Positions 20,833 through 21,305 of a DNA stretch of 64,000 bases are shown piece after piece. The position numbers were made by a program, and so were the translations under genes. The DNA lies in NCBI GenBank assembly GCA_951406725.2, contig OX597838.1:11904001-11968000 (forward strand), given 5' to 3'. Origin of the DNA: Octopus vulgaris (Eukaryota). Below the pieces are notes generated by a model that saw nothing but the letters and a program-made list of their open reading frames with translations, was not told where the DNA came from and did no database searches. How positions within the stretch are numbered: position 1 is the stretch's first letter; every line of letters begins with the position of its first letter.

Positions 20833-20976
20833 AGCGGTCACCCATCTAAATACTCACGAGGCTCGACGTTGCTTAACTTCCAATCACTGAAGTTAAGCAA
20901 CATCGAGCCTAGTGAGTACTTTAGTGAGTACCTAAGTACTCACTAGGCTTGGGAAACCTGGGTGCTGTAAGCATCT
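20833..20976. pseudogene. Rearranged 5S rRNA fragments (one inverted, one forward with an internal snap-back)
   Basis: 20833-20880 is the reverse complement of the 5S box A to box C region. 20881-20976 is a forward fragment gaagttaagcaacatcgagcc...gggaaacctgggtgctgtaagc. Confidence 0.85.
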
Positions 20977-20981
20977 CCCAA

Positions 20982-21100
20982 GCTTACGGCCATATCACGT
21001 TGACTGTACCGATTCTCGTCCGATCACCGACGTTAAGGAACGTCTGCCCTAGTGAGTGCTTAGGTGGGTGACCGCTTGGGAAACCTAGGTGCTGTAAGCA
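20982..21100 (+). rRNA. Full-length 5S rRNA-like copy, probably a retroposed pseudogene
   Basis: 119 nt gcttacggccatatcacgttg...ctcgtccgatcaccg...gggtgaccgcttgggaaacctaggtgctgtaagca. The terminal stem gcttac/gtaagc is intact. There is no oligo-T Pol III terminator downstream. Confidence 0.85.
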
Positions 21101-21104
21101 TCTC

Positions 21105-21305
21105 ACAATCCTGAAAGATTTCAACATTTGAACAGATGGATAGAGGAAATAGGCCTAAAACTCTGTTTAGTACAGCTCCAGGAAACAGTGTTATTTAGGG
21201 AGAGCTAGGATACTTAGGTGGGTTCTTGGCGTCTAAGGTTACTTGTCGTAGCCCGATGTCAGGAATTTTTCATTTCCAACAGTCTAATCTGTTGCGTGTA
21301 TATGA
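21105..21305 (+). mobile_element. R4/Dong-type 3' end directly fused to the 5S copy
   Basis: TILKD..LNRWIEEIGLKLCLVQLQETVL(frameshift)GRARILRWVLGV*, then a short UTR and an (AAT)n tail. Confidence 0.75.

Follow-up and report, generated by a model that had tools for sequence, protein, structure and literature searches.

How did one complete and one partial copy of 5S rRNA, the latter with an inverted arm, come to stand ahead of a truncated LINE in an octopus genome? The genome is microsatellite-rich and 2.8 Gb in size, and the locus lies in a 64-kb stretch of DNA that was analysed as a whole (G000:C25:11904001-11968000; hereafter the window, from whose first letter positions are counted). The preliminary description listed an (AAT) site, an inverted 5S piece, a partial 5S, a full 119-nt 5S, a LINE end and an (AAT)n run, and all of these are where it placed them. 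On the left, a remnant of the (AAT) target run (ATAATAAT, 20825-20832) adjoins 5S nt 50-95 in inverted orientation (20833-20878, minus strand; 3 differences over 46 nt to the natural copy L114), a fold-back arm that is likely the product of snap-back synthesis on cDNA. A second 5S molecule, 5′-truncated, follows on the plus strand with nt 38-80 (20879-20921; 4 differences over 43 nt to L114), and this forward piece pairs with the inverted one as a hairpin whose loop measures 8 nt (−32.9 kcal/mol, computed as DNA). Sequence comparison places an internal rearrangement (20922-20949) where nt 81-92 would stand: nt 69-78 are repeated (20922-20931), then nt 65-82 appear inverted (20932-20949) and rejoin via a 3-nt match (GCT). 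The second molecule resumes on the plus strand with nt 96-119 (20950-20973) and ends at 20981 with the 3′ trailer TCTCCCA and one extra A. The letters of a proposed "ccaa" linker are present here, but they are better read as belonging to this trailer and the added A. The full-length 5S copy, decayed and starting exactly at nt 1 (20982-21100, plus strand), carries the 3′ trailer of a 5S precursor, TCTCACA (21101-21107, plus strand), of a class seen in 62 of 130 dispersed 5S ends. The AC at 21105-21106 can be read as 5S trailer or, from the LINE family letters at the joint, as LINE. The LINE part starts at 21105-21108 on the plus strand and comprises the last ~40 codons (stop codon 21234-21236) and the 3′ UTR of a 5′-truncated R4/Dong-like element; it ends at 21305, followed by (AAT)4. 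This (AAT)n tail, or right target remnant, occupies 21305-21318 (plus strand), and behind it are microsatellites only. Around the whole insertion we found no unique target-site duplication (TSD), only AAT repeats on either side.

Other repeats lie in the window. A second Dong-like family of the restriction-like endonuclease (RLE) type has a 3′ end at 20281-20658, in the same AAT-rich stretch ~175 nt to the left of the chimera, and a further piece of it (94%) is at 8881-9022. Tandem arrays occupy 27339-27854 (32-nt unit, 16 copies) and 34452-35476 (330-nt unit, 3.1 copies, 98% matches).

The Rfam model bears out the complete 5S. The stretch 20982-21100 matches RF00001 with 78.7 bits (E 5e-15, gathering score 38) and is the sole 5S above the Rfam cut-off in the window. 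Comparison with the species' own 5S genes sets it apart from a functional gene: its identity to an array gene is 88%, and the array genes on C4 reach 113-116 bits. Neither a T-run terminator behind the copy nor an array-type flank upstream was found, and a search aimed at DNA returned no RNA runs with this stretch. With 12 differences to the column majority over 92 positions, it ranks 108th of 118 by divergence; the LINE tail differs at 13 of 182. Its changes cluster at nt 23-26 and nt 64-66, and over 20982-21075 its count of non-CpG changes ties for the highest among 54 ungapped full-length copies, with zero CpG transitions. Private changes lie at nt 50, 57, 64-66, 77 and 83, the first two presumably in or beside box A. 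None of them recurs in the partial pieces, whereas G73 is present in all five 5S pieces that span nt 73 and in 18 of 113 dispersed copies. This indicates that the pieces come from the same source variant, and a later duplication at the DNA level is disfavoured. No divergent 5S subfamily that might have supplied the full copy was seen among the 40 scored of 827 candidates.

The tail had been described as the end of a Dong open reading frame, from TILKD to GRARILRWVLGV and a stop codon. Both ends are present and fall in one frame because an 8-nt duplication and a 1-nt insertion together restore it; between them the frame is broken. The family's own ending is GTIPKDLNRW...GTARILRRVLGI, followed by the stop. 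The family has 2247 candidate members, with 87-90% identity among the 40 scored. Longer copies extend more than 2 kb upstream and carry, in this order, a reverse transcriptase (RT), a CCHC knuckle and a C-terminal restriction-like endonuclease with a PD..D end. Their Pfam matches to RVT_1 (E 1.7e-4) and zf-RVT (E 4.4e-5) are both under the Pfam cut-offs, and a Pfam search of the RLE C-terminus gave no match. The best relative is P0001 (61% across the RT piece), a single 1118-aa protein with RVT_1 whose best PDB match is R2 (E 1e-30); its end and the family's C-terminus with RRPD..D share 49% identity. No protein named R4, Dong, HERO or NeSL appeared among the relatives returned. The RT motifs of the family copy L196 and of P0001 are NWKxPG, YRPITCL, EEQKGCR, DYKKAxD and YMDD/FMDD. 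We compared these with published alignment rows, of which AAA97394.1 is taken by us to be R4. By eye, they match the Dong row and partly the AAA97394.1 row, unlike the nine R2-type rows, in a compared part of the alignment that lies outside the HERO and NeSL rows (PMC5678591 supplement). AAT repeats stand behind 20 of 24 parsed 3′ ends of the family (5 of 29 were unparsed). Dong has been assigned to the R4 lineage with a TAA insertion context (PMC3774820), and the RLE clades are treated in PMC4640811. Taken together, motifs and (AAT)n flanks give good support to a predicted R4/Dong-like origin of the tail at clade level, and to that extent the Dong derivation of 21105-21305 holds. An element targeting 5S genes that inserted into one is ruled out; the 5S is whole, and no 5S remainder lies behind the tail.

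The joins recur in public sequencing runs. The 5S-5S joint lies within a contig of run X1 (20892-21065), which differs from the window by 1 letter and extends more than 31 letters to either side of the joint; a second X1 contig (20745-20907) runs from the left flank into the inverted 5S piece. Contigs of X1, X2, X10 and X5, four runs from four studies, cross the 5S-LINE joint with just 27 letters on the 5S side, the bridging rule being 31 letters. X5 agrees with the window across 21081-21152; in X1, X2 and X10 the tail is a different allele, whose G at 21122 makes the 8-nt duplication perfect. The site is filled in runs of both organism labels (A and B), and the assembly may itself derive from one of the supporting runs. 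The insertion is single-copy. In a genome-wide DNA search across the 5S-LINE joint, the window alone spans it (1 of 41 matches; 40 of 1199 candidates scored), as expected of a chimera, and an exact gapped pattern over the joint, which misses mutated copies, has 1 match, the window (control 1). No 5S lies within 1.5 kb of the 29 other LINE-tail loci, and the best identity of any other 5S copy to the window copy is at most 88% (40 scored of 827 candidates). The insertion is dead, has not multiplied and is without likely function.

Common capping by 5S and U6 in this genome makes the locus less of an oddity. The 24-nt 5S end occurs, with at most 1 mismatch, at 687 places genome-wide, array genes included (control 0). 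A sample of 140 loci, taken without those of the C4 array and without a duplicate of the dimer on C25, reduced to 130 distinct ends at 128 places (L002-L203); it was picked by intact 3′ ends, and 3′-truncated copies are unrepresented in it. At 103 of these 130 ends a repeat starts within 40 nt behind, on the same strand (self-matches and singleton exemplars excluded), compared with 3/130 in the mirror control and 16/1000 random positions. The partners are SINE heads (labelled A, C, D and E), which look tRNA-like by eye, and a 55-nt tail (B). Tail B is the 3′ end of SINE A as well as of an RT-coding LINE, which we take from its motifs to be CR1-like. The chimeras cut this LINE at a near-constant point, the base of a GC-rich hairpin-like stretch ~55 nt from the end, where a fixed switch or cleavage site is possible. 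Tail B has 7745 exact copies, with L217-L246 in this set. Among the 130 ends, the RLE family of the tail stands behind 5S at the window locus only, once an antisense match at L083 away from the joint and matches on a SINE nested in L195 are set aside. A tblastn search of RLE proteins against the 130 downstream stretches gave 0 matches and also missed the window locus, so short tails of other RLE families could escape it.

Trailers in the linkers are of the array-gene type (TTCCATT, TTACCTG) or of the TC(T/A)CAC class, the latter (62/130) found at none of the C4 array loci listed. Since the trailers of other dispersed copies match the C4 array genes, these copies derive from RNA. Nearly all linkers are distinct (37/40 for A, 30/30 for B, 9/9 for C), and 32 of 100 contain TTTT, which would stop Pol III read-through. 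This points to repeated independent capture and disfavours a few composite masters. Joins of 5S and SINE in this genome are not to be filed as composite SINE families where a common linker is lacking. U6 is joined to the same SINE heads and LINE tail at 16 of 30 loci, 5 of them being a tandem cluster, and occurs on 2 of 30 loci chosen by the B tail alone. The U6 loci concerned are L219, L231 and L250-L279, the tandem cluster being L258-L262 on C1. The 5S genes at C4:35.20-35.34 Mb (L105-L134) also form a cluster, with several unit types, both orientations and differing 3′ trailers. Across 36 short joins of 5S and tail, a non-simple TSD match of at least 8 nt was found in 1/36 (shuffled mean 0.8; 0/36 when the SINE only is considered). 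An association of such joins with (TA)n on both sides is weak (8, 2, 7, 12; Fisher p 0.050, n=29). Inverted matches resembling snap-back, between the left 5S flank and the sequence behind, occur at L012, L025, L114, L150 and L152 (no control).

An exact gapped pattern for head-to-tail 5S dimers, which misses mutated copies, has 3 matches, of which 2 are true. L247, a candidate third dimer, is a chance match with no upstream 5S. The other true dimer (L200/L113; C25:5354954-5355202, minus strand) consists of two 5S identical to the array genes L108-L111, each with its trailer and joined by one A, ahead of a truncated element. This dimer is young. The frame of its element resembles clusters with RVT_1, GIY-YIG and HTH_animal (scores 0.94-0.97) and had no match in a Pfam search; a Penelope-like carrier is a lead rather than proof. 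On its left, the dimer is flanked by the 3′ part of the same element, copied in inverted orientation. Both dimers sit on rare partners (RLE, Penelope-like) and none on the common SINE partners (n=2).

We interpret the locus as the probable outcome of a single target-primed reverse transcription event with jumps from template to template, to which we give a probability of roughly 0.72. An R4/Dong-like enzyme would have nicked an (AAT)n run and copied ~200 nt of its own RNA. Through a 2-nt match (AC) it would then have switched to a 5S precursor at its 3′ trailer and copied this molecule to nt 1. Having added one untemplated base, it would have jumped to another 5S precursor from the same gene variant, entering at the 3′ end, slipped twice inside this second molecule and halted at nt 38. 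The cDNA end may then have folded back (2-3 paired bases, 8-nt loop) and copied nt 50-95 before being joined to the left AAT flank. Several observations fit such an event. The full copy starts exactly at nt 1 behind a trailer and one A, the sole other dimer found has the same form, and AAT on both sides fits the LINE family. With a repeat starting behind 103/130 5S ends, the carrier of a 5S copy normally follows it immediately, and at this locus it is the LINE end that follows. Jumps of R2 from template to template, end to end, were reportedly described by Bibillo and Eickbush in 2004. For R2 proteins, which are RLE relatives, template jumps, snap-back and junctions with extra templates (mostly U6) are reported in cells (PMC11371274), and triple chimeras have been described (PMC2104539; PMC4476161). 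The preliminary description had offered a one-off, multi-jump retrochimera made by a Dong-type RT, and the joint found once supports this choice.

Some observations weigh against a single event. A unique TSD is absent, and runs of organisms A and B are both filled. Divergence is higher in the full 5S than in the neighbouring parts, and it spares CpG. The fold-back arm contains nt 81-92, which are missing from the forward piece, so a simple snap-back on the present sequence is insufficient and an extra step or a later rearrangement would be needed. Divergence of the 5S and SINE parts across joins correlates weakly (Spearman 0.24, p 0.13, n=40; pooled 0.22, p 0.12, n=51). Human 5S/L1 chimeras typically have the 5S antisense and truncated, in the 27 cases given by PMC13174262.

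Independent events could have left a similar locus if an older 5S, or pair of 5S, had later received a LINE at its 3′ end, with the inversions arising from replication slips driven by the hairpin. The lack of a unique TSD, the greater divergence of the full 5S and an insertion-prone region, where a second RLE family ends at 20658, are all compatible with this. The difference in divergence between full and partial pieces is, however, not significant (Fisher p 0.07). The 5S/LINE boundary has no AAT target remnant, whereas the 5′-truncated family copies L033 and L045 keep the microsatellite on their left. The 5S would also be without the carrier that 103/130 ends have, and G73 is common to the pieces while the private changes are not. 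We consider this origin unlikely.

A step at the RNA level would place the join earlier: a 5S precursor ligated to a cleaved LINE RNA, the fused RNA then being reverse transcribed, with the remainder coming from repair. The 5′ end of a Pol III transcript is a triphosphate and a poor ligation substrate. The 5S-5S joint requires an intact 5S 5′ end as partner, and the complete heads of the SINEs that follow most 5S copies pose the same problem. Jumps at the cDNA level fit both the varied untemplated A/T letters of the linkers and the 2-nt match at the LINE joint. In favour of ligation, U6 is capped alike here (16/30 loci) and unrelated RT types are involved, which fits a step independent of the RT. 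Ligation has been proposed for U6/L1, and the sense orientation fits it equally with switching (PMC13174262; PMC11371274). On balance, we regard ligation as improbable for this locus.

The preliminary description had also considered a 5S SINE paired with an RLE LINE, that is, a 5S-headed SINE3 family mobilised by a Dong-like LINE through a common tail. The layout of 5S head, LINE tail and AAT is what such a family would look like, and there are about 687 5S 3′ ends genome-wide, array genes included. In Entamoeba, SINEs adjoin LINEs, and those LINEs are RLE-type. Here, a 5S-derived head and a LINE-derived 3′ tail are found without many copies sharing one junction: the joint is single, 0/29 other tails have 5S, no sibling exceeds 88%, and among the 130 ends the RLE family of the tail is joined at the window locus only. 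The exact pattern misses mutated copies and 40 of 1199 candidates were scored, and a very small or old family is conceivable, but we judge a SINE3 family very unlikely, and this alternative is not supported. That the assembly falsely joined repeats is scarcely credible, since, for all the repeats and hairpins of the region and the 5S-LINE contigs below the 31-letter rule, contigs from four runs of four studies cross that joint, both the left flank and the 5S-5S joint are spanned in X1, and the private letters of the 5S recur.

Returning to capture during reverse transcription, we tentatively suggest, with some doubt, that in this animal retrotransposition by at least three unrelated RTs (CR1-like with its SINEs, R4/Dong-like RLE and Penelope-like) routinely ends with the capture of full-length 5S precursors and U6, and that serial double capture marks the RLE and Penelope-like enzymes. 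If true, several hundred independent 5S-headed insertions would be raw material for new SINE3 families, and R2-style serial jumping and snap-back by an R4-clade enzyme would be preserved at this locus as a natural fossil. The wider set offers hundreds of datable, independent additions of 5S heads in one genome, making testable both the birth of 5S-headed SINEs and the choice between capture by the enzyme and RNA ligation. Our literature search found no report of an RLE element that had twice captured full-length 5S in sense. At the level of titles and the start of abstracts in open-licence literature, with Repbase reports outside its scope, it returned no 5S capture by an R4/Dong or Penelope-like element, nor this pattern in octopus.

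We compared the locus with known systems as far as the cited accounts describe them. Like Dong of Bombyx mori and the R4 clade, the tail has a TAA/AAT repeat context and RT motifs that match the Dong and R4 rows by eye; it differs from Dong in being a separate family from another phylum, of which no full-length copy was recovered in G000. Addition of 5S to SINE heads, and criteria separating families from summed chimeras, are set out in PMC4494074. The locus resembles SINE3 as defined there in having a 5S-derived head before a LINE-derived tail, but it is single-copy, with an unshared junction and a decayed head, and is possibly a precursor form. As in a chimeric retrocopy, the truncated LINE carries a sense copy of a cellular RNA at its 5′ end; the junction is unique and has not spread. 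U6 chimeras are known with L1, L2, RTE and their SINEs (PMC4476161). In small-RNA chimeras of the U6/L1 type, too, a truncated LINE or SINE is headed at its 5′ end by a sense copy of a small Pol III RNA; they are independent, non-spreading events, reported for the L1, L2 and RTE clades (PMC4476161, PMC13174262). In contrast, the locus has a full-length sense 5S precursor, captured twice, an RLE (R4/Dong-like) carrier and no unique TSD. The tripartite chimeras of Magnaporthe (WEIRD + Mg-SINE + MGL) and those of mammals also involve two template switches per insertion, but they combine three different RNAs, the fungal one with a 14-bp TSD (PMC2104539), whereas at the locus a single kind of RNA contributes two molecules, accompanied by a fold-back, within an (AAT)n run. 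The 5′ junctions of R2 PRINT share with it an RLE-class enzyme, an antisense fold-back and fusion to a non-coding RNA; they are engineered insertions into rDNA of human cells, in which the extra RNA is almost always U6 (PMC11371274). The locus, with its 5S, is instead a germline fossil that arose naturally from an R4/Dong-like element, and it would record in a natural sister-clade insertion the jumping and snap-back of R2 seen in the test tube and in engineered cells.
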